Of a DNA stretch of 64,000 bases, positions 806 to 57,962 are shown piece by piece. Position 1 is the first letter of the stretch. Every line of letters begins with the position of its first letter. The stretch is from Escherichia coli (GTDB lineage Bacteria > Pseudomonadota > Gammaproteobacteria > Enterobacterales > Enterobacteriaceae). The stretch is taken from assembly GCF_044324875.1 (NCBI RefSeq), contig NZ_CP172185.1. The stretch is one strand, 5' to 3'. The notes beneath the pieces were generated by a model. It saw only the letters and a list, made by a program, of their open reading frames with translations. It was not told the origin of the DNA and did no database searches. Both the position numbers and the translations under genes were made by a program.

Positions 806-2048
<1,243 letters not shown>

Positions 2049-2283
2049 TCTATACCTACTCCTTCCCGTAACGTCTTTAATACGCTGTAAGTATTACTAT
2101 ACCTGCGCAACCAGACCCTGTGAAAAGTCCAGAATGCCATTTTCTGCATTATTCACATATTTGATAAAAACTCTCTATCAAAGCGACGTTTTGATAAAAA
2201 AATATTGTCCCCGAAGTGATGGGAAAAGTCTTAGCGGCAATGCAGAATAGAAAGTGCTCATCTTTTATTTCCCGGGAGGGGAA

Positions 2284-3492
2284 ATGTCCCGCGTGTCGCA
2301 GGCGAGGAACCTGGGTAAATATTTCCTGCTCATCGATAATATGCTGGTCGTGCTGGGGTTCTTTGTTGTCTTCCCGCTGATCTCTATCCGCTTCGTTGAT
2401 CAAATGGGCTGGGCCGCCGTCATGGTCGGTATTGCCCTCGGCCTACGCCAGTTTATTCAGCAAGGTCTGGGTATTTTCGGCGGAGCAATTGCCGACCGCT
2501 TTGGTGCCAAACCGATGATTGTTACCGGTATGCTGATGCGTGCCGCCGGATTCGCCACAATGGGTATCGCCCACGAACCGTGGCTACTGTGGTTTTCATG
2601 CCTGCTTTCGGGACTCGGCGGCACGTTGTTTGATCCGCCGCGTTCGGCGCTGGTGGTGAAATTAATCCGTCCACAGCAGCGTGGTCGTTTTTTCTCGCTG
2701 TTGATGATGCAGGACAGTGCCGGTGCGGTCATTGGCGCATTGTTGGGGAGCTGGCTGTTGCAATACGACTTTCGCCTGGTCTGCGCCACAGGGGCAGTTT
2801 TGTTTGTGCTGTGTGCAGCGTTCAATGCGTGGTTGTTACCGGCATGGAAACTCTCCACCGTACGCACGCCCGTTCGCGAAGGCATGACCCGCGTGATGCG
2901 CGACAAGCGTTTTGTCACCTATGTCCTGACGCTGGCGGGTTACTACATGCTGGCTGTACAAGTGATGCTGATGCTGCCAATTATGGTCAACGACGTGGCG
3001 GGCGCGCCCTCTGCCGTTAAATGGATGTATGCCATTGAAGCGTGTCTGTCGTTAACGTTGCTCTATCCTATCGCCCGCTGGAGTGAAAAGCATTTTCGTC
3101 TGGAACATCGGTTGATGGCTGGGCTGTTGATAATGTCATTAAGCATGATGCCAGTGGGCATGGTCAGCGGCCTGCAACAACTTTTCACCCTGATTTGTCT
3201 GTTTTATATCGGGTCGATCATTGCCGAGCCTGCGCGTGAAACCTTAAGTGCTTCGCTGGCAGACGCAAGAGCTCGCGGCAGCTATATGGGGTTTAGCCGT
3301 CTGGGTCTGGCGATTGGCGGCGCTATTGGTTATATCGGTGGCGGCTGGCTGTTTGACCTGGGCAAATCGGCGCACCAGCCAGAGCTTCCGTGGATGATGC
3401 TGGGCATTATTGGCATCTTCACTTTCCTTGCGCTGGGTTGGCAGTTTAGCCAGAAACGCGCCGCGCGTCGTTTGCTTGAACGCGACGCCTGA
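2284..3492 (+). CDS. mdtH: MFS multidrug efflux transporter MdtH
   Basis: ORF 2254-3492; ATG at 2284 gives [27 protein letters not shown]..., 12-TM MFS pattern. Confidence 0.9.
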
Positions 3493-3555
3493 TTTGATAC
3501 TCCCCCCTGACTCCTCCATACTGAAAGTGAACTGACAGCCAAATGGAGGAGTCAC

Positions 3556-4203
3556 GTGAAGCTATACATTTACGATCACTGCCCTTACTGCCTCAAAGCC
3601 CGCATGATTTTCGGCCTGAAAAATATCCCCGTCGAATTACATGTTCTGCTCAACGACGACGCAGAAACACCCACCCGGATGGTCGGTCAAAAACAGGTTC
3701 CCATTCTGCAAAAAGATGACAGCCGCTATATGCCAGAAAGCATGGACATCGTTCACTATGTCGATAAACTCGACGGCAAACCGTTACTGACCGGCAAACG
3801 TTCCCCTGCCATTGAAGAGTGGCTGCGCAAGGTCAATGGCTACGCCAACAAACTGCTGTTGCCGCGTTTTGCCAAATCGGCATTTGATGAGTTTTCTACT
3901 CCCGCCGCGCGCAAATATTTCGTCGACAAGAAAGAGGCCAGCGCGGGTAATTTTGCCGACCTGCTGGCCCACTCTGACGGTCTGATTAAGAATATCAGCG
4001 ATGATTTACGTGCGCTGGACAAACTGATCGTCAAACCGAACGCCGTGAATGGCGAACTTTCGGAAGATGATATTCAGCTATTTCCGCTCCTGCGTAATCT
4101 GACGCTGGTAGCCGGAATCAACTGGCCAAGCCGCGTTGCTGATTACCGCGATAATATGGCGAAACAGACACAAATCAATTTGTTATCATCAATGGCGATT
4201 TAA
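3556..4203 (+). CDS. grxB: glutaredoxin 2
   Basis: 215-aa ORF with CPYC active site (MKLYIYDHCPYCLKAR...); GTG start preceded by GGAGGA. Confidence 0.92.
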   Translation: MKLYIYDHCPYCLKARMIFGLKNIPVELHVLLNDDAETPTRMVGQKQVPILQKDDSRYMPESMDIVHYVDKLDGKPLLTGKRSPAIEEWLRKVNGYANKLLLPRFAKSAFDEFSTPAARKYFVDKKEASAGNFADLLAHSDGLIKNISDDLRALDKLIVKPNAVNGELSEDDIQLFPLLRNLTLVAGINWPSRVADYRDNMAKQTQINLLSSMAI

Positions 4204-4336
4204 TCCTGACCCGCCGCGGCAGCCTGTATTCGCGGGTTGCCGCCGTTTTCAGTTTTTTCTGCTGGCGCGTTTATCGCTGGTGACACATGCTGCGTTGTGT
4301 CAGGATATTGACGCAGATTTCATGTCGAGGACTACC

Positions 4337-4897
4337 ATGAACAAGTTTTTATTTGCCGCTGCATTGATCGTCAGTGGCCTGCTCGTTGGCTGTAATCAAC
4401 TCACCCAATACACCATCACCGAACAAGAAATTAACCAGTCGCTTGCGAAACATAATAATTTCTCAAAAGATATCGGTTTACCCGGCGTGGCTGACGCCCA
4501 TATTGTTCTGACAAACCTGACCAGCCAAATTGGTCGCGAAGAGCCGAATAAGGTTACCCTAACCGGAGACGCCAATCTGGACATGAACTCCCTGTTCGGT
4601 AGCCAGAAAGCGACCATGAAACTGAAGCTGAAAGCGCTGCCCGTGTTTGATAAAGAAAAAGGTGCGATCTTCCTGAAAGAGATGGAAGTGGTCGATGCGA
4701 CGGTACAACCGGAAAAAATGCAAACGGTGATGCAAACGTTGCTCCCCTATTTGAACCAGGCATTACGCAATTACTTTAACCAGCAACCAGCTTACGTCCT
4801 GCGCGAAGATGGCAGCCAGGGCGAAGCAATGGCGAAGAAACTGGCGAAAGGCATTGAAGTGAAGCCAGGCGAAATTGTCATTCCGTTTACTGATTAA
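4337..4897 (+). CDS. yceB: lipoprotein YceB (DUF1439)
   Basis: Internal ATG of ORF 4136-4897 gives MNKFLFAAALIVSGLLVGC lipobox signal peptide; 186 aa. Confidence 0.9.
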   Translation: MNKFLFAAALIVSGLLVGCNQLTQYTITEQEINQSLAKHNNFSKDIGLPGVADAHIVLTNLTSQIGREEPNKVTLTGDANLDMNSLFGSQKATMKLKLKALPVFDKEKGAIFLKEMEVVDATVQPEKMQTVMQTLLPYLNQALRNYFNQQPAYVLREDGSQGEAMAKKLAKGIEVKPGEIVIPFTD

Positions 4898-4902
4898 TCA
4901 CG

Positions 4903-4928
4903 AGGGCGCATTCGCGCCCTTTATTTTT
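4903..4928 (+). terminator. rho-independent terminator downstream of yceB
   Basis: GC stem agggcgc/gcgccct with 4-nt loop followed by T-run ttatttttcg. Confidence 0.6.
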
Positions 4929-4935
4929 CGTGCAA

Positions 4936-4951
4936 AGGAAAACGTTTCCGC
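4936..4951. promoter_or_regulatory. candidate PurR operator in pyrC control region
   Basis: Palindrome aggaaaacgtttccgc resembles the PurR box (ACGCAAACGTTTGCGT-type); pyrC is a known PurR target. Confidence 0.5.
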
Positions 4952-5002
4952 TTATCCTTTGTGTCCGGCAAAAACATCCCTTCAGCCGGAGCATAGAGAT
5001 TA

Positions 5003-6049
5003 ATGACTGCACCATCCCAGGTATTAAAGATCCGCCGCCCAGACGACTGGCACCTTCACCTCCGCGATGGCGACATGTTAAAAACTGTCGTGCCGTATAC
5101 CAGCGAAATTTATGGACGGGCTATCGTAATGCCCAATCTGGCTCCGCCCGTGACCACCGTTGAGGCTGCCGTGGCTTATCGCCAGCGTATTCTTGACGCC
5201 GTACCTGCCGGGCACGATTTCAGCCCGCTGATGACCTGTTATTTGACAGATTCACTAGACCCTAATGAGCTTGAGCGTGGATTTAACGAAGGCGTGTTCA
5301 CCGCTGCCAAACTTTACCCGGCAAACGCAACCACTAACTCCAGTCACGGCGTGACGTCAGTTGACGCAATCATGCCGGTACTTGAGCGCATGGAAAAAAT
5401 CGGTATGCCGTTACTGGTGCATGGTGAAGTGACACATGCAGATATCGACATTTTTGATCGTGAAGCGCGCTTTATTGAAAGCGTGATGGAACCGCTGCGC
5501 CAGCGCCTGACTGCGCTGAAAGTCGTTTTTGAGCACATCACCACCAAAGATGCTGCCGACTATGTCCGTAACGGAAATGAACGGCTGGCTGCCACCATCA
5601 CTCCGCAGCATCTGATGTTTAACCGCAACCATATGCTGGTTGGTGGCGTGCGTCCACACCTGTATTGTCTACCCATCCTCAAACGCAATATTCACCAACA
5701 GGCACTGCGTGAACTGGTCGCCAGCGGTTTTAATCGCGTATTCCTCGGTACGGATTCTGCGCCGCATGCACGTCATCGCAAAGAGAGCAGCTGCGGCTGC
5801 GCGGGCTGCTTCAACGCCCCCACCGCGCTGGGCAGTTACGCTACCGTCTTTGAAGAGATGAATGCTCTGCAGCACTTTGAAGCATTCTGTTCTGTAAACG
5901 GCCCGCAGTTCTATGGCTTGCCGGTCAACGACACATTCATCGAACTGGTCCGCGAAGAGCAACAGGTTGCTGAAAGCATCGCATTGACTGATGACACACT
6001 GGTGCCATTCCTCGCCGGGGAAACGGTACGCTGGTCCGTTAAACAATAA
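5003..6049 (+). CDS. pyrC: dihydroorotase
   Basis: 348-aa [30 protein letters not shown]... canonical class II dihydroorotase. Confidence 0.95.
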
Positions 6050-6085
6050 AAATCCTAGCTTCCTGTTGTCATTAGGTTATTTTAC

Positions 6086-6101
6086 CTGTATAAATAACCA
6101 G
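6086..6101. promoter_or_regulatory. LexA (SOS) box upstream of dinI
   Basis: CTGTATAAATAACCAG fits CTG-N10-CAG consensus, 22 bp upstream of the dinI start. Confidence 0.75.
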
Positions 6102-6122
6102 TATATTCAACAGGGGGCTATT

Positions 6123-6368
6123 ATGCGAATTGAAGTCACCATAGCGAAAACTTCTCCATTGCCAGCTGGGGCTATTGACGCCCTGGCTGGCGAACTTTCC
6201 CGCCGTATTCAGTATGCGTTTCCTGATAATGAAGGCCACGTATCGGTACGTTATGCCGCAGCGAATAATTTATCGGTTATTGGCGCAACAAAAGAAGATA
6301 AACAGCGCATTAGCGAAATTCTCCAGGAAACGTGGGAAAGCGCCGATGACTGGTTTGTCAGCGAATAA
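6123..6368 (+). CDS. dinI: DNA damage-inducible protein I
   Basis: Internal ATG of ORF 5991-6368 gives 81-aa MRIEVTIAKTSPLPAGAIDALAGELSRR... Confidence 0.92.
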   Translation: MRIEVTIAKTSPLPAGAIDALAGELSRRIQYAFPDNEGHVSVRYAAANNLSVIGATKEDKQRISEILQETWESADDWFVSE

Positions 6369-50234: not shown

Positions 50235-50912
50235 ATGTCAGAAATTGCCCTGAGTCTTAATGATGTTCATGTTGTTTATACCAGAAGCAGACAGGTCGTG
50301 TTACAGGGTTTTTCAATGTCCGTTCATAAAGGTGAACTTGTATGTCTGCTTGGCGTTTCAGGTTGTGGAAAAACAACCGTATTACGAACTGTAGCAGGCC
50401 TGGAACGATTACAACAAGGTGAAATATTCATATCACAACGCTGTGTAGCCGGAGCCGGAATTCATCTCCCCCCGGAAAAGCGCAGGGTCGGAATGGTCTT
50501 TCAGGAATATGCTCTGTTTCCCCACCTGACAGTAACACAAAATGTAGCCTTTGGTCTGCGCCATCTGCCTTATGAACTACAGCATGCCAGAGTCACTGAA
50601 CTTCTGAAAATGGTTGAATTATTATCCTGTGCAAAGCGCTATCCTCATGAACTCTCAGGTGGACAGCAACAACGTATTGCACTTGCCAGAGCACTGGCCC
50701 CGGCCCCTGATATTTTGTTACTGGATGAGCCATTTTCCAGTCTGGATAAACAAACCAGTGAATACCTAGTGAAAGAAGTACGGGACCTGTTACGTAGTTC
50801 AGGTCAGACAGCCCTGATCGTTACTCATAATGAATCAGAAGCACTCGAAATATCAAACCGTATTTGTATCATGACGGAGGGTAATATAAGTTCGGTTCAG
50901 TCTGTGGTCTGA
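50235..50912 (+). CDS. afuC: ABC transporter ATP-binding protein (AfuC/FbpC-like), possibly lacking a C-terminal regulatory domain
   Basis: 225-aa ORF with Walker A GVSGCGKTT, signature LSGGQQQR, Walker B ILLLDEPFSSLD; ends right after the NBD. Confidence 0.75.
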   Translation: MSEIALSLNDVHVVYTRSRQVVLQGFSMSVHKGELVCLLGVSGCGKTTVLRTVAGLERLQQGEIFISQRCVAGAGIHLPPEKRRVGMVFQEYALFPHLTVTQNVAFGLRHLPYELQHARVTELLKMVELLSCAKRYPHELSGGQQQRIALARALAPAPDILLLDEPFSSLDKQTSEYLVKEVRDLLRSSGQTALIVTHNESEALEISNRICIMTEGNISSVQSVV

Positions 50913-51720
50913 GACGTAACCGCACATTCAGGATCCCCTGTTCGTCATGGAAGCTGTATTATGTAACTATATGGAGGCATAGCAGATATTGTTGAAGAAA
51001 TACATCAAAAACACTCACATTTCTGGTACAACAGGAGTTGTAGATTTAATGATTATTGGGACGAAGTTACTACAGAAAAGCTGTACCGGGAACAGGTATG
51101 GTAGTTCCTTGTCACGTGTGGATTAAATGAGCATAATGCAGATCAATTACAAAAGGCATTTCGTAATAGCTCTGTTGTTGATTCGGTTACCATGATGGCT
51201 GTGGCAAGAGCCACCATGTGACTATACATGATATAATTATTTGTGTGATGTTGTTATACCTGAACAACAGGCATGAGATAATGGAAAAAATTATACATAT
51301 AACTCGGCTTTCCCATACTCCACTACAGAACAGTATATGATTCTGAACATTTCAATCCAGGCGCATTACATAACTATATTACATGTAACTATCTGGCCCT
51401 CAAATCATCGAGAGAATTGTTTAAAGTCAGCAGTCATAATCTGAATATAGATCATTATCACATAATTTAATTCTTAATTCACTACATTTTCCCTTGAATC
51501 CGGTATAATAAGACAGAGCACATGGCTGATGCTTTGTTTCGGTGTGGATAATCTGGTGGCGTCGGCTATGTGCTCTCAACAGTTAACTTATTATGAATAC
51601 TATTATCAATACAGGTTTTACATAAAAAAATAAAAAGCATCTCCTGATATCAGCCCAGTCTCTTTGGGCTAACCAGAATTATACATAAGCTATGCAGATA
51701 TTAATTTGCATACAAAACCA

Positions 51721-52203
51721 TTATTTTCTTGAGCACACTATACTAATGTATCCCAGAAGAGGTCCTGTGCATAATCCTGTTGCTGCCCATAATACAGCAA
51801 GTGAAATATCAGGACCATCTGTATCCGGATAAAATCCTCCATAATAAACAGCAAATACAGTAGAGTATGCATTGAATGCAGGTAAACTACTGTTCATGCA
51901 CGGTATCTGAAGGAGTAAAAGAAGAACATACACTGTTATTATTACTGATATAATGATTGCCAACATGGCAGAAATGTGCAGGGATATCATGTAATTTATA
52001 GCAGCAATACATAACACAGACGTTGCTATACCGGGAAGTAATGAAGCATAAATTTTCTTTAATATGTCAGGCGTCGCTCCCAGAGCATAGTACCATGCCC
52101 AGCCAATAAATATAGCCCACACAGGAATATTAATCCCCGGCCATGAAGCCAGGCATGACATCCCTGCTAACAGGGCTATGGTAAGATTCATCGGTAATTT
52201 CAT
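51721..52203 (-). CDS. hypothetical polytopic membrane protein (DUF1097/YcdZ-like by composition)
   Basis: 160-aa hydrophobic ORF last in the carboxylase gene string; resemblance to YcdZ is by eye only. Confidence 0.45.
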   Translation of the reverse strand: MKLPMNLTIALLAGMSCLASWPGINIPVWAIFIGWAWYYALGATPDILKKIYASLLPGIATSVLCIAAINYMISLHISAMLAIIISVIITVYVLLLLLQIPCMNSSLPAFNAYSTVFAVYYGGFYPDTDGPDISLAVLWAATGLCTGPLLGYISIVCSRK

Positions 52204-52217
52204 TTCAGACGCACCTG

Positions 52218-53204
52218 TTATGAGCCATAAGATAATGAATTAATGAGAAGGTTGAGTCTTTCATTAAATTCTTTACGGATTTCCAGAGCTTTATCCATAC
52301 TGACTTGTGAAAATGTCACACTGGAGCCGGGTGCAAGTTGAGCCAGAATATCGAGATCAGTACTCACTACTGTCCCCACTGTCATATATCCCCCTCCTGA
52401 TACAGCATCCCTGTGCAAAACTATTGGTGTGCTTCCAGAGGGAACCTGAATTGATCCCACGGGATAACAGGCATCAACGATATTTGATGGATCTGAACCA
52501 GCACCAAATGGCGGGTGCCGATCAACAAAATTAAGTGAGCGCCCTCCCTGAAACCTGAAACCTGTTCTGTCTGAATCCTTACTGATCTTCCATACATCAT
52601 CAAAAAAACTTTCAACTGATTCCTGTTTCAGGCGATGGATATACATTCCGGGTACAACACGTAATTCATTTTCTTTAGTAAAAACTGGACGTAACTCATC
52701 TGGCAGAGTGTAATTTATACGCCCTTTATTACATATTGCTTCCTGTACGGGTAATTCATCTCCGGCCTGTAACCGACGTCCTTTATAACCACCAAGACTG
52801 CCAAGGAGGTAAGTAGAACGACTTCCGGCAATAACAGGGACATTAATACCTCCCGCGATGGCAAGGTAACAGCGTACACCCACCGTGGTGTATGCGATTT
52901 TTAATATCTGTCCTTTCCGGGCTAACAGGGATGTATTCACCGGAACACTCTGATTATCCAGGGTCACCGTAAAAGGGGCACCGCTGACTGCAAAAAGAGT
53001 ATCCTGCTCAAACAAGAGTTCGGGCCCCAGTAATGTGCATTCCAGCGCTGCATCAAACGGGTGATTACCGACAAGCAAATTGGCGGTAACTAACCCTGTA
53101 CGATCTAATGCACCGGATGGCGGGATCCCGAGATGATAAAAGCCTTCTCGTCCTCCGTCCTGAACGGACGTGGATAATCCGGGCGTCAATACTTTAATTC
53201 CCAT
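52218..53204 (-). CDS. KipA/PxpC-family protein (allophanate hydrolase subunit 2-type carboxyltransferase domain)
   Basis: ORF 52218-53252; internal start MGIKVLTPGLSTSVQDGGREGFYHLGIPPSGALD... Confidence 0.8.
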   Translation of the reverse strand: MGIKVLTPGLSTSVQDGGREGFYHLGIPPSGALDRTGLVTANLLVGNHPFDAALECTLLGPELLFEQDTLFAVSGAPFTVTLDNQSVPVNTSLLARKGQILKIAYTTVGVRCYLAIAGGINVPVIAGSRSTYLLGSLGGYKGRRLQAGDELPVQEAICNKGRINYTLPDELRPVFTKENELRVVPGMYIHRLKQESVESFFDDVWKISKDSDRTGFRFQGGRSLNFVDRHPPFGAGSDPSNIVDACYPVGSIQVPSGSTPIVLHRDAVSGGGYMTVGTVVSTDLDILAQLAPGSSVTFSQVSMDKALEIRKEFNERLNLLINSLSYGS

Positions 53205-54078
53205 ACAGTTCTCCCAGTAAATTTTTAGTATAATCTTCAGGATTTTCTTCAAATGCGTTCAAATCAAAATTTACAGGCCTGATAAGTAATTCAAAATTAC
53301 CAGATTCCACATCACTTATACATTGATTATATTGTTCAGTATTGATCGCCCTGAACTTAATGATGTCCCCTGCCCGGAAAAACACCATAGAGTCTTTGAA
53401 ATATGATAATTTCTGTTCTGTGTCATAAATCGGAGCTGGTGTTATACCGAACAATTGATACCCACCTGCCCCCCGGACTGGATATATAGCCCCGAAGCAC
53501 CCGCCATGACCAACAGAATGTTTTGGTGTATCAGTTCTGGGAACAAGATATTTTGGAACCTGGATTTGCTTTTTCCGGTCAACCATCTGATACATAAAAG
53601 GCAGCCCGGCAACGAAGCCAACCATAGAAACAAACCAGGGACTTGAATGATGGGCCTCAATAAACGTCTGAACATCCGGATATCCGTTTATTTCAGCAGC
53701 ATACTCAAGATCGGTTAATGCCGGGTTTTGATGATTATTCCGGAACCGCATCAGGGTTTCATGAGTCCATGGATCATTATACAATACAGGAATTTCAATT
53801 ATACGTGTCTGTAGTGTCATTTCTCCATTCCCGGAGAGCACATTAACATTTCGTATCTGTTGTAACAAATCATCAGGGTGTATAATGTCGGGATTAAATC
53901 TTATCTGACATGATGCATTTGCAAGGCAAATATCGAGCACACCATTAATATTTAATGATTCTATTTTTCTCGTAAGAGACAAGCTGTGAAAAAATGCTTT
54001 AAGAGACATTTCCTCACTGACTTCGATGAAAAGATGCTCATCAGCACCAAATGTATAGCGCAAATTTATATCAGTCAT
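53194..54078 (-). CDS. KipI/PxpB-family protein (allophanate hydrolase subunit 1-type)
   Basis: 294-aa ORF; overlaps downstream KipA-like gene by 11 bp; cyclophilin-like AHS1 pattern. Confidence 0.8.
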   Translation of the reverse strand: MTDINLRYTFGADEHLFIEVSEEMSLKAFFHSLSLTRKIESLNINGVLDICLANASCQIRFNPDIIHPDDLLQQIRNVNVLSGNGEMTLQTRIIEIPVLYNDPWTHETLMRFRNNHQNPALTDLEYAAEINGYPDVQTFIEAHHSSPWFVSMVGFVAGLPFMYQMVDRKKQIQVPKYLVPRTDTPKHSVGHGGCFGAIYPVRGAGGYQLFGITPAPIYDTEQKLSYFKDSMVFFRAGDIIKFRAINTEQYNQCISDVESGNFELLIRPVNFDLNAFEENPEDYTKNLLGELYGN

Positions 54079-54087
54079 ACAGGTTCC

Positions 54088-55449
54088 TCATTTAAATGCA
54101 CCGGTATTCAGCCAGTCTTCAAGCGTTTTATTATGAAACTGAGCATTTCTGAAAAACTCAGCTGATAATAATGCTTCATGAAGAGGTATAGTTGTATGAA
54201 CGCCTTCTATTTGCATATTACCAAGGGTCTCCCGGGCAAGACTTATCGTTTTTTCTCTGCTGTCAGTATGAATAATAAGTTTTGCCAGTAAAGAATCATA
54301 CCAGAGAGGCATCTTATACCCTTCAAACATGTGAGTATCGACTCTTATTCCCTGCCCTTCAGGTATCTGCAATACCGATATTGTTCCGGGACTGGGCATA
54401 AAACCATTGTAAGGATTTTCTGCATTAATCCTCATTTCAATTGCAGCTCCCTGTAACGTAATCTCATCCTGTCCAAACGACAGAGAGTCGCCCCCGGCAA
54501 TTCTCAGCATCCAGTCGATAATATCAATGCCTGTGACCATTTCTGTAACCGGATGTTCAACCTGAATCCGCGTATTCATTTCAATAAAAAAGAATTCCCC
54601 GCTCCGGTCATCGACCAGGTACTCAATAGTTCCTGCGCTTGAATAATTCAGCATTCTGGCGAGATTCAGTGCACTCTGACATAAGGCCTCACGTAGTGAC
54701 GCTGAAACAGAAGGCGATGGCGCTTCTTCTGTCACTTTTTGTCTTTTTCTCTGCAGAGAACACTCTCGTTCAAACAGGTGAACGATGTTTTTTCCGTCTC
54801 CAAGGATCTGAACTTCAACATGACGGGCTTCCGGTATATAACGTTCCAGATATACACCATCGTGCCCGAAAGCTGCTTTTGCTTCAGCACGCGCTACTGT
54901 ATATTCATGCACCAGCTGTTCCGGAGAATGTACAATCCGTATCCCCTTCCCGCCTCCCCCGGCCGAGGCCTTTATCAATAAAGGATATCCGGTAATATCC
55001 GATGCTACTGATAATGCCTCCTCAGGGCTTATAACCTCGCCATTTGAGCCTGGTACAACCGGGACACCTGCCTTTATCGCGCAATCTCTCGCGATTGCTT
55101 TATCCCCCATTTGCTCAATAATCTGAGGAGATGGCCCAACAAAAATAAGCCCTGCATCGAGCACCGCACGGGCAAAAGACGCATTCTCCGACAGAAAACC
55201 ATATCCGGGATGAATGGCCTGAGCGCCAGACTGAAGGGCTGCATCAATTATCTTCTTTCCGTCCAGATAACTGTCATCGGCACGGGATTTACCTATGACA
55301 ATAACTTCATCGGCGCTCTTTGCCGGAAGAGAATTGATGTCTGATTCGCTACATGCCAGCACCGTTTTTATATTCAGCTTCTTTGCACTTCGTATAATTC
55401 GTAATGCAATCTCACCTCTGTTGGCAATAAGCAGTTTTTGAATACTCAT
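54088..55449 (-). CDS. biotin carboxylase (AccC-like ATP-grasp enzyme)
   Basis: 453-aa ORF MSIQKLLIANRGEIALRIIRSAKKLNIKTV...; ATP-grasp and biotin carboxylase signatures. Confidence 0.85.
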   Translation of the reverse strand: MSIQKLLIANRGEIALRIIRSAKKLNIKTVLACSESDINSLPAKSADEVIVIGKSRADDSYLDGKKIIDAALQSGAQAIHPGYGFLSENASFARAVLDAGLIFVGPSPQIIEQMGDKAIARDCAIKAGVPVVPGSNGEVISPEEALSVASDITGYPLLIKASAGGGGKGIRIVHSPEQLVHEYTVARAEAKAAFGHDGVYLERYIPEARHVEVQILGDGKNIVHLFERECSLQRKRQKVTEEAPSPSVSASLREALCQSALNLARMLNYSSAGTIEYLVDDRSGEFFFIEMNTRIQVEHPVTEMVTGIDIIDWMLRIAGGDSLSFGQDEITLQGAAIEMRINAENPYNGFMPSPGTISVLQIPEGQGIRVDTHMFEGYKMPLWYDSLLAKLIIHTDSREKTISLARETLGNMQIEGVHTTIPLHEALLSAEFFRNAQFHNKTLEDWLNTGAFK

Positions 55450-55621
55450 GCTCAGTTCCTTATATTATTTCTATGGTAGCCAGTACCTGACCAGGTTCCA
55501 CTTCCTCCCCATTCTCCACCTTAAACTGGATAGACTGGCCCCCTGAATCTCCAGACAACCAGTATCACTTAAATAAGTGATAGTCTTAATACTAGTTTTT
55601 AGACTAGTCATTGGAGAACAG

Positions 55622-55987
55622 ATGATTGATGTCTTAGGGCCGGAGAAACGCAGACGGCGTACCACACAGGAAAAGATCGCAATTGTTCAGCAGAGCTTTG
55701 AACCGGGGATGACGGTCTCCCTCGTTGCCCGGCAACATGGTGTAGCAGCCAGCCAGTTATTTCTCTGGCGTAAGCAATACCAGGAAGGAAGTCTTACTGC
55801 TGTCGCCGCCGGAGAACAGGTTGTTCCTGCCTCTGAACTTGCTGCCGCCATGAAGCAGATTAAAGAACTCCAGCGCCTGCTCGGCAAGAAAACGATGGAA
55901 AATGAACTCCTCAAAGAAGCCGTTGAATATGGACGGGCAAAAAAGTGGATAGCGCACGCGCCCTTATTGCCCGGGGATGGGGAGTAA
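55622..55987 (+). CDS. insC: IS2 transposase OrfA (InsC)
   Basis: ATG at 55622, [41 protein letters not shown]... Confidence 0.93.
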
Positions 55988-56850
55988 GCTTAGTCAGCCG
56001 TTGTCTCCGGGTGTCGCGTGCGCAGTTGCACGTCATTCTCAGACGAACCGATGACTGGATGGATGGCCGCCGCAGTCGTCACACTGATGATACGGATGTG
56101 CTTCTCCGTATACACCATGTTATCGGAGAGCTGCCAACGTATGGTTATCGTCGGGTATGGGCGCTGCTTCGCAGACAGGCAGAACTTGATGGTATGCCTG
56201 CGATCAATGCCAAACGTGTTTACCGGATCATGCGCCAGAATGCGCTGTTGCTTGAGCGAAAACCTGCTGTACCGCCATCGAAACGGGCACATACAGGCAG
56301 AGTGGCTGTGAAAGAAAGTAATCAGCGATGGTGCTCTGACGGGTTCGAGTTCCGCTGTGATAACGGAGAAAAACTGCGAGTCACGTTCGCGCTGGACTGC
56401 TGTGACCGTGAGGCACTGCACTGGGCGGTCACTACGGGCGGCTTCAACAGTGAAACAGTACAGGACGTCATGCTGGGAGCGGTGGAACGCCGCTTCGGCA
56501 ACGAGCTTCCGGCGTCTCCAGTAGAGTGGCTGACGGATAATGGTTCATGCTACCGGGCTAATGAAACACGGCAGTTTGCCCGGATGTTGGGGCTTGAACC
56601 GAAGAGCACGGCGGTGCGGAGTCCGGAGAGTAACGGCATAGCAGAGAGCTTCGTGAAAACGATAAAGCGTGACTACATCAGTGTCATGCCCAAACCAGAC
56701 GGGTTAACGGCAGCAAAGAACCTTGCAGAGGCGTTCGAGCATTATAACGAATGGCATCCGCATAGTGCACTGGGTTATCGCTCGCCACGGGAATATCTAC
56801 GGCAGCAAGCCAGTAATGGGTTAAGTGATAACAGGTGTCTGGAAATATAG
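55945..56850 (+). CDS. insD: IS2 transposase OrfB (InsD)
   Basis: 301-aa ORF overlapping insC (frameshift fusion arrangement); DDE integrase core. Confidence 0.93.
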
Positions 56851-57058
56851 GGGCAAATCCACTGGATATTAGTCCCGGTTGTTTCAGCATGAATTTCGTT
56901 AAACTGCTTCATTATTTCAATCAACCCAATGACGGTACTCTCCTGAACAGTGTCACCATTCTCCAGAAACGGGGCACTATCAGGTGCTGGTTTCCGATAA
57001 AATACACCAGGTAAAGGTGAAAGAATTTCTGTAACAGCCATAACATCCTCCATGTATA

Positions 57059-57820
57059 TCAGTTTTGAGAATTTACACTTATGTCTGCCTCACGTAAGGC
57101 TTTATTTATTGCAATCAGAAGAGATAAGGCACCGGGCGTATCACTATGGACACAGACAGAAGAGAAATGAATGTCAATATCCTGATCTTCTACAGTACGA
57201 ACTTTTCCCTCCAGACAGGCACGCAGCACTTTTTTTGCGACATCATCAGGATTAAGAGGTTCAGTTCTCCGTATAAATACAATGGAACCGCTTTGATCAT
57301 AATCCCTGTCGGCATAAAACTCACAAATAACAGGATGTCCGATTTGCGTCGCTTCTTTCCAGATGGCACTACCATACATGCAATATATTCTCAATTCAGG
57401 CGCATAACTATGAAGCGTTGAGACAAAATGCTTTGCAGCATCCCGATCATGAGCAAGATGCATATACAACGCGCCATGAGGCTTAACATGGTTTACAGGC
57501 ACATTGTGTAATGTGGCAAATTCACGCAAGGCCCCCAGCTGATAAATCATGTCATTGGTGATTTCCTCTGCGGTGCAGTGAATATGACGCCGGCCAAAAC
57601 CAGCCAGATCACGATAACCGGGATGAGCACCGACAGACACACCACTGTCACGGGCGCTGATTATTGTACGGTGCATAATCCCCGGATCACCTGCATGAAA
57701 ACCTGTCGCTATATTCGCTGAGGAGATGTATGGCATAATATCAATATCCCGGATATCTCCGAGAGTCCATGCTCCAAAGCTTTCCCCCATATCAGAGCTG
57801 ATATCAATACTGCGAAGCAT
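57059..57820 (-). CDS. LamB/YcsF-family protein (PxpA-like lactam utilisation protein)
   Basis: ORF 57059-57868; ATG at 57820 (MLRSIDISSDMGESFGAW...) preceded by GGAGG. Confidence 0.8.
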   Translation of the reverse strand: MLRSIDISSDMGESFGAWTLGDIRDIDIMPYISSANIATGFHAGDPGIMHRTIISARDSGVSVGAHPGYRDLAGFGRRHIHCTAEEITNDMIYQLGALREFATLHNVPVNHVKPHGALYMHLAHDRDAAKHFVSTLHSYAPELRIYCMYGSAIWKEATQIGHPVICEFYADRDYDQSGSIVFIRRTEPLNPDDVAKKVLRACLEGKVRTVEDQDIDIHFSSVCVHSDTPGALSLLIAINKALREADISVNSQN

Positions 57821-57962
57821 TAAAACCTCCGTCTGACAAATACGGTAACAGTATGTCATGTAGCACATTTGTTTCTTTATTGTAAATTATTATTTTTCTA
57901 TGGTAATATATTAAATTTATTTATAATTACTGTTGCAAAAATATCTTTATCAGGAAAATTTG

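Follow-up and report, generated by a model that had tools for sequence, protein, structure and literature searches.

A gene-free spacer in a rare Escherichia coli genomic island as the probable seam of two convergent cassettes, carrying an unannotated GNAT N-acetyltransferase pseudogene

Overview

We analyzed a stretch of E. coli DNA of 64,000 nucleotides (NCBI RefSeq assembly GCF_044324875.1, contig NZ_CP172185.1; the whole stretch is referred to as the window), and within it a spacer of 808 nt at 50913-51720. We consider it highly probable that the spacer as a whole is accounted for as a 3'-to-3' seam combining a complete ATPase gene, a dead GNAT gene, orphan DNA and a terminator. On this account two horizontally acquired cassettes would meet at the spacer in a rare E. 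coli genomic island. Its leftmost part would be an old intergenic region 3' of a complete and naturally short ABC ATPase, followed by an unannotated dead GNAT gene that would once have stood behind the ATPase, and of which the first 87 codons remain clearly recognizable, with four stops and several frameshifts. The 3' part of the GNAT gene probably survives only as scraps left after an internal deletion, and some 200 nt of orphan AT-rich DNA, with a strong predicted plus-strand hairpin, would then lead to the last ~100 nt, which would comprise the 3' UTR and intrinsic terminator of a converging carboxylase/DUF1097 operon. We propose that no function is needed for the spacer beyond ending two converging transcription units; the object is of an ordinary and well-understood kind, a pseudogene missed by annotation and set among the converging 3' regions of a mosaic island.

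The features of the spacer and its two neighbors are as follows:

50235..50912, plus strand: ABC-transporter ATPase, third and final gene of the cassette SBP (349)-permease (562)-ATPase (225); Pfam ABC_tran at residues 23-167
50913..51045, plus strand: old afuC-GNAT intergenic region, non-coding; 68% identity to DNA upstream of the intact GNAT gene
51046..51289, plus strand: GNAT N-acetyltransferase pseudogene, codons 1-87 of 144; 74-75% DNA identity to the intact GNAT gene; unannotated
51290..51428, plus strand: probable scrambled 3' remnant of the GNAT pseudogene, uncertain; two collinear DNA matches to the intact GNAT locus L009
51505..51595, plus strand: strong imperfect palindrome or RNA hairpin; arms at 51515-51532 and 51559-51576
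51624..51684, minus strand: likely intrinsic terminator of the carboxylase/DUF1097 operon; stem-loop from 51684 to 51637, U5AU7 tract from 51636 to 51624
51721..52203, minus strand: DUF1097 membrane protein gene, last of the cassette LysR / PxpA-BCCP-BC-PxpB-PxpC-DUF1097; Pfam PF06496, in agreement with the RefSeq annotation of the reference island (L001)

The spacer and its surroundings

The original prediction had described about 0.8 kb of AT-rich DNA free of any ORF of 60 aa or more, and this description held. The GC content is 0.364 over the 808 nt and 0.45-0.52 in the genes on either side. ORFs reach at most 50 aa and stop-free runs, over all frames, at most 55 codons, and each frame contains 12-21 stops where ~19 are expected for the composition. 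The stop density in the spacer matches that of non-coding DNA of the same composition, and what is unusual is the 0.8-kb gene-free gap itself, not the absence of ORFs inside it. The spacer is devoid of RefSeq annotation in all 11 of the complete genomes that carry it, a search of Rfam 15 over 50000-52500 at E values up to 1 returned zero matches, and a Pfam search with all long stop-free peptides of the spacer returned only noise (E >= 0.087).

The left neighbor of the spacer is an afuC-like ORF on the plus strand (50235-50912, 225 aa), and the right neighbor is a DUF1097 gene on the minus strand with its 3' end at 51721. In the RefSeq annotation the plus strand carries, in this order, genes for an SBP of 349 aa, a permease of 562 aa and an ATPase of 225 aa; after the 808-nt gap come the minus-strand carboxylase genes, which, counted from the spacer, encode DUF1097, PxpC-like and PxpB-like proteins, biotin carboxylase, BCCP and PxpA, with a LysR regulator gene divergent to them. 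The two gene groups converge on the spacer, and the carboxylase operon ends, and does not start, there. The suggestion that the spacer might hold promoters for a downstream carboxylase operon fails on orientation, as the operon is on the minus strand and runs toward the spacer.

The spacer is part of a rare, mosaic E. coli genomic island: the segment 50200-53300 is present in 11 of 5,426 complete genomes, is chromosomal in all of them, and its copies are at least 99.8% identical. A seam between the afu and carboxylase modules had been proposed from the sequence, and such a seam is indeed found, with the GNAT pseudogene at the junction of two separately mobile cassettes. The island segment compared, which includes Ag43, IS66 and GTPase genes, starts about 8 kb downstream of a tRNA-Ser(GGA) gene (29941-30028) that is likely to be a landmark of the island's integration. 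In E. coli MS 119-7 (NZ_CP146653.1), IS2 interrupts the transporter cassette of this island and the ATPase is annotated as two fragments, an IS2 insertion additional to the one in the window.

A decayed GNAT N-acetyltransferase gene

When the spacer was compared to complete E. coli genomes by blastn, 51053-51289 (positions 141-377 of the spacer) matched with 75% identity over 253 nt (E = 4e-37). The subject was an annotated intact GNAT gene in five other E. coli genomes, with a shorter match in a sixth, E. coli CS5L (L010), whose copy of the gene is interrupted by an IS3-family element. The intact homologue is WP_053287820.1 (144 aa), and the 5' part of the spacer copy aligns to 5994-6254 of one of its loci (L009). 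In a frameshift-aware protein-to-DNA alignment, GNAT residues 1-87 aligned to ~51046-51289 with a score of 158, a value reached by none of 100 shuffled DNAs (29 +/- 5), and the decayed, frame-broken gene that had been predicted for the spacer is in this way identified as a GNAT N-acetyltransferase pseudogene.

The codon-by-codon comparison revealed the lesions directly. Read in the frame of the reference, the remnant has four in-frame stops: K20 is changed to TAG at 51102-04, W to TGA at 51179-81 and again at 51229-31, and L to TGA at 51274-76. Indels are present at 51061 (-1), 51168-71 (-2/+1), 51190-92 (-9/-2), 51216 (+1) and 51251 (-3), of which at least four are frameshifting. The acetyl-CoA-binding motif A (Q/R-x-x-G-x-G/A) is broken, QQGLGYG having become QQA*DNG. 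With four in-frame stops and several frameshifts, the separate GNAT gene of the spacer is dead, a pseudogene and not a functional member of the family. A second and independent inactivation in this gene family is seen in E. coli CS5L, where the element that splits the intact-type GNAT gene (L010, 5001-6768) is itself frameshifted.

Two protein-like fragments had been quoted as signs of decay, and both are present, in frame +0, although only part of what they contain is coding in origin. The second fragment (LNEHNADQLQKAFRNSS...AVARA) corresponds to GNAT residues 26-60 and the last nine residues of the first (EKLYREQVW) to GNAT residues 11-19, and these are coding remnants; the remainder of the first (DIVEEIHQKHSHFWYNRSCRFNDYW) combines intergenic DNA with an out-of-frame reading of the initial GNAT codons. 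The intergenic region itself (50913-51045) gave no stable RNA structure (z = +1.9), no canonical terminator in a consensus scan, and no Pfam match for the quoted peptide.

The intact homologue meets the Pfam model Acetyltransf_1 (PF00583) at 6e-12, with 46 bits against a cutoff of 20.7, while repaired translations of the remnant (78 and 133 aa) had no Pfam match at E values up to 10. That the remnant is missed by the Pfam GNAT models probably explains why no pipeline has annotated it, and the GNAT assignment draws on one close homologue family. The analysis adds a GNAT pseudogene that was overlooked both by PGAP and by profile searches of the repaired remnant.

Linkage of the ATPase and GNAT genes

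The similarity to the intact GNAT locus begins upstream of the gene. The segment 50796-51008, which consists of the last ~115 nt of afuC and the adjoining intergenic DNA, is 68% identical to the DNA upstream of the intact GNAT gene (L009, 5601-5810). A tblastn search at this locus recovered only the last ~35 codons of the afuC-like gene (TVLIVTHDESASLKRSNRI), at 5601-5717, and nothing of afuA or afuB. Since an afuC-like remnant and the intergenic DNA lie 5' of the intact GNAT gene, the linkage of afuC and GNAT looks ancestral, and the unit would have existed in a common ancestor; we infer that the two genes were once co-transcribed.

In some E. coli strains of avian and food origin, the intact GNAT gene (loci L009, L017-L024) is flanked by the sit and lsr clusters, and all E. 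coli GNAT contexts examined have this position; a Klebsiella GNAT of 58% identity is found in a different genomic context. In the same loci, a 1.65-kb ORF-poor gap runs from sitD to the intact GNAT gene (4351-5994 in L009) and contains the afuC-like remnant. In the intact-GNAT loci the afuC-like gene is cut to ~35 codons, whereas in the window afuC is complete and the GNAT gene is dead. This pattern suggests reciprocal decay: GNAT would have been lost and the transporter retained in the lineage of the window, and the transporter lost and GNAT retained in the sit-lsr lineage. An intact afu cassette together with an intact GNAT gene was found in none of the E. coli contexts examined, and a pattern scan of metagenomes brought up nothing beyond the two types already known. 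As carriers of opposite halves of an ancestral afuC-GNAT unit, the two E. coli island types make a small but clear example of reciprocal decay.

A Logan contig (L011) carries the transporter cassette at 94% nucleotide identity (1541-6171, against 46263-50903 of the window), and there the homology stops 9 nt before the afuC stop, and an FGGY-kinase and sugar-ABC cluster takes the place of the GNAT and carboxylase genes. Because the homology of this contig ends at that point and a different cluster follows, the 3' end of afuC is a recurrent recombination boundary.

The short ABC ATPase

The original prediction had afuC stop directly after its nucleotide-binding domain, and gave a length of about 348 aa for the K-12 protein. 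The length is correct (b0262, 348 aa). In favor of a deletion or frameshift that had shortened the gene, with the fragments in the spacer as its decayed C-terminal regulatory (TOBE-type) domain, the window ATPase aligns only to the first ~220 residues of K-12 AfuC, and the longer NCBIfam ATPase models were all matched over their N-terminal ~215-230 positions only. The window ATPase has the ABC nucleotide-binding domain at 2e-34 (PF00005), and its relatives give a different answer. In a search of 5.8 billion proteins from which the best 120 matches were listed, all relatives among these with at least 93% query coverage (57-95% identity) are 216-240 aa long, and those at 57-75% identity come from at least nine other genera and belong to SBP/permease/ATPase cassettes of the same size. 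The genera with the short ATPase are Buttiauxella, Citrobacter, Salmonella diarizonae, Rahnella, Providencia, Brenneria, Xenorhabdus, Samsonia, Edwardsiella and Variovorax. When ten ATPases were aligned, all of their C-terminal ends fell 7-19 residues past a conserved G216.

The transporter of the window has the same cassette architecture as loci L002-L008 and L011. In Citrobacter, Buttiauxella, Salmonella and L011 (the E. coli-like variant island of 94% identity) the cassette is likewise compact, with an SBP of ~345 aa, a permease of 562 aa and an ATPase of ~227 aa, and has a different 3' neighbor each time. A frameshift-tolerant alignment of the C-terminal 128 residues of K-12 AfuC to the spacer scored 30, against a shuffle mean of 32, and with a score at chance no remnant of the ~120-aa TOBE-type C-terminal domain of K-12 AfuC was detectable in the spacer. 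The fragments can be ruled out as a lost part of afuC, as they belong to the GNAT gene, which has its own start codon region.

In view of the 216-240 aa relatives, their shared C-terminal boundary, the differing 3' neighbors and the chance-level score of the K-12 domain, the ATPase is, as judged from these comparisons, complete, and belongs to a subfamily that is short by nature, with no TOBE-type C-terminal domain. Full-length homologues of about 225 aa are common, every full-length relative listed being of 216-240 aa, and the proposed truncation is refuted: the length is normal for the subfamily. We give truncation followed by decay of the C-terminal domain scarcely any weight. A practical consequence for annotation is that a false "truncated afuC" call on a complete short ATPase is averted.

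The SBP of the cassette (47498-48547) has a very close match in PDB 1y9u (E = 5.5e-144), an entry that bears the label 'putative iron binding protein' and that we take to be the Bordetella ferric-binding protein (FbpA). The SBP falls far under the NCBIfam cutoffs of the phosphonate and thiamine SBP models. The closeness of the SBP to 1y9u argues that the cassette is a ferric-type transporter of the short-ATPase subfamily and not canonical AfuABC. Canonical AfuABC has been shown to transport sugar phosphates (PMC4546632), a function that is not transferable to the cassette in the window, and the 'afu' label is a loose one here.

The converging carboxylase operon and its probable terminator

At the right end of the spacer, the minus strand reads into a candidate terminator (51684-51624) that begins 37 nt past the DUF1097 stop. 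It consists of an imperfect hairpin (-19.3 kcal/mol, z = -2.2 in the minus-strand fold) followed directly by UUUUUAUUUUUUU, and was not called by a simple consensus terminator scan. We infer that this hairpin and U-tract likely terminate transcription of the DUF1097 operon.

L014 and L015 share the six-gene order of the operon, again with DUF1097 at the end, and their DUF1097 proteins are 56-59% identical to that of the window; these are the closest relatives, and the flanks of such loci are unrelated to the spacer. The set LysR / PxpA(LamB/YcsF)-BCCP-biotin carboxylase-PxpB-PxpC-DUF1097 (51721-57868 in the window) is a conserved unit in which DUF1097 is always last, and relatives of DUF1097 in Firmicutes have 44-45% identity. 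The gene set would be a biotin-dependent version of the 5-oxoprolinase-like system, equipped with its own DUF1097 membrane protein, and as such may merit a separate look. In the window an IS2 copy (55533-56860) lies inside the BCCP (accB-like) gene, which is intact in the reference island (L001), and the remainder of BCCP is a C-terminal ORF of only 32 aa (55460-55558). Because of this insertion, the carboxylase cassette is probably inactive, or disrupted by polarity, in the strain of the window.

Origin of the right half of the spacer and of the hairpin

The clear GNAT homology ends abruptly at 51289. Beyond it two short DNA matches to the intact GNAT gene were found, 51304-51328 to L009 6343-6366 (the FGFSILTT codons; 21/25) and 51408-51425 to L009 6384-6401 (the SSELLKM codons; 15/18), both on the plus strand, collinear, and in one frame of the window. 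With thresholds chosen after the matches had been seen, a collinear chain this strong occurred in 0.5% of 400 composition-matched Markov simulations (P about 0.005), and a single best match this strong in 5.5% of 400 under thresholds set in the same manner. An extension of the pseudogene to ~51428 is probable, though short of proof; it would need an internal deletion of ~85 nt at 51289/51300 and about 57 extra nt.

On the other hand, 51290-51623 might have nothing to do with GNAT, and might instead be the remnant of another gene or of a mobile element that fused the cassettes, with the GNAT gene cut at 51289. The abrupt stop of the homology would be expected of such a cut, protein-level tests of GNAT residues 88-144 against the right half were not significant and gave scores at chance, and an 11-nt direct repeat, AATTATACATA, is present at 51289 and again at 51677. 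Against this origin stand the collinear, same-strand matches to 3' GNAT codons, the occurrence of such a repeat by chance in 13% of simulations, the lack of terminal inverted repeats, and the lack of similarity of the right half, in any frame, to an E. coli IS, plasmid, phage or protein. As a target-site duplication the repeat was rejected (P = 0.13, no terminal inverted repeats). We regard an origin unrelated to GNAT as unlikely, and scraps of the GNAT 3' end as the preferred reading of 51290-51428.

For the non-GNAT remainder of the spacer, searches of E. coli genomes, plasmids and phages, as well as of Rfam and Pfam, revealed no further homology, and DNA searches of the right half against plasmids and phages gave no match. 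A six-frame concatenation of 51140-51720 had no credible homologue among 1.84 billion proteins, a search of limited sensitivity in which a short GNAT fragment serving as positive control was also missed. The single match that it returned (E = 6e-5, to a T/S/A/G-rich repeat protein) was spurious and of low complexity, its best stretch spanning an artificial X separator. Roughly 51430-51623, some 200 nt, is orphan AT-rich DNA without an assigned origin, and it includes the hairpin.

The hairpin at 51505-51595 folds on the plus strand with a minimum free energy of -35.4 kcal/mol (z = -5.2), and none of 200 shuffles was as stable; on the minus strand the values are -21.9 kcal/mol and z = -2.7. The better fold of the plus strand is due to the three differences between the 17-18-nt arms, all of which are transitions that give G-U pairs on that strand. 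A perfect TATAAT (51504-51509) abuts the hairpin, with no -35 called by the promoter scan, and no U-tract follows the hairpin 3' on the plus strand. These properties raise the question of whether the hairpin is a functional RNA, either an sRNA started from the TATAAT or a 3' stabilizing or terminating stem-loop of a former afu-GNAT transcript that would still protect the afuABC mRNA. The stability of the fold, the preference for the plus strand with its G-U-compatible transitions, the character of the hairpin as a GC-rich island in AT-rich DNA, and its location just 3' of the expected GNAT stop (about 51450, if the 3' scraps are real) would all be consistent with such a role. They are countered by the absence of an Rfam 15 family at E values up to 1, of a plus-strand U-tract and of a -35 called with the TATAAT, and by the weakness of the G-U evidence, three out of three such pairs having an estimated chance probability of about 0.04-0.125. 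Nor does conservation favor it: the 11 complete genomes with the hairpin have it at >=99.8% identity (10 identical) and one metagenome copy is identical, so that there is no usable covariation; there is no other copy in the window or in E. coli genomes, plasmids and phages; and no convincing equivalent was found 3' of the intact GNAT gene in L009 (z = -1.5). On balance we think an RNA function of this kind improbable, an sRNA having no positive sign in its favor other than the strong hairpin, and give an even smaller chance to the broader idea that the hairpin could be either an undescribed functional RNA, as an island-borne sRNA or 3' stabilizer of afuABC, or a DNA site at which recombination brought the iron-transporter and carboxylase cassettes together. 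The hairpin is the sole loose end of the spacer; the seam as a whole raises no new biological question, and only the hairpin might merit a look, provided that transcript data are available.

Comparison with known systems

Several well-known elements have counterparts at the seam. The intact E. coli GNAT protein WP_053287820.1 (Pfam Acetyltransf_1/7/9/10) has a gene with 74-75% DNA identity to the window over codons 1-87; unlike it, the copy in the window has four stops and frameshifts, has 40% of its length missing or scrambled at the 3' end, and is unannotated. The candidate terminator resembles Rho-independent terminators between convergent operons in having a stem-loop followed directly by a U5AU7 tract, and differs in that its stem is long and imperfect, with internal bulges, and escapes the consensus scanner.

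The ATPase can be compared to two types of ABC ATPase. The nucleotide-binding domain of K-12 AfuC (b0262, 348 aa) is homologous to it, with 44% identity over 204 residues, but K-12 AfuC and the FbpC-type ferric ABC ATPases carry a C-terminal regulatory domain that the window ATPase and its whole subfamily lack, and against PRK11432, the NCBIfam ferric ATPase equivalog, the window ATPase scores 195.9 bits where the cutoff is 496. It is below every NCBIfam equivalog cutoff. The short ThiQ-type ABC ATPases (about 232 aa, no TOBE domain) are like it in consisting of the nucleotide-binding domain only, and its match spans the TIGR01277 thiQ model from one end to the other (positions 13-211 of 213); however, the score of 162 bits is under the 245-bit thiQ cutoff, and the partner SBP is FbpA-like and not ThiB-like.
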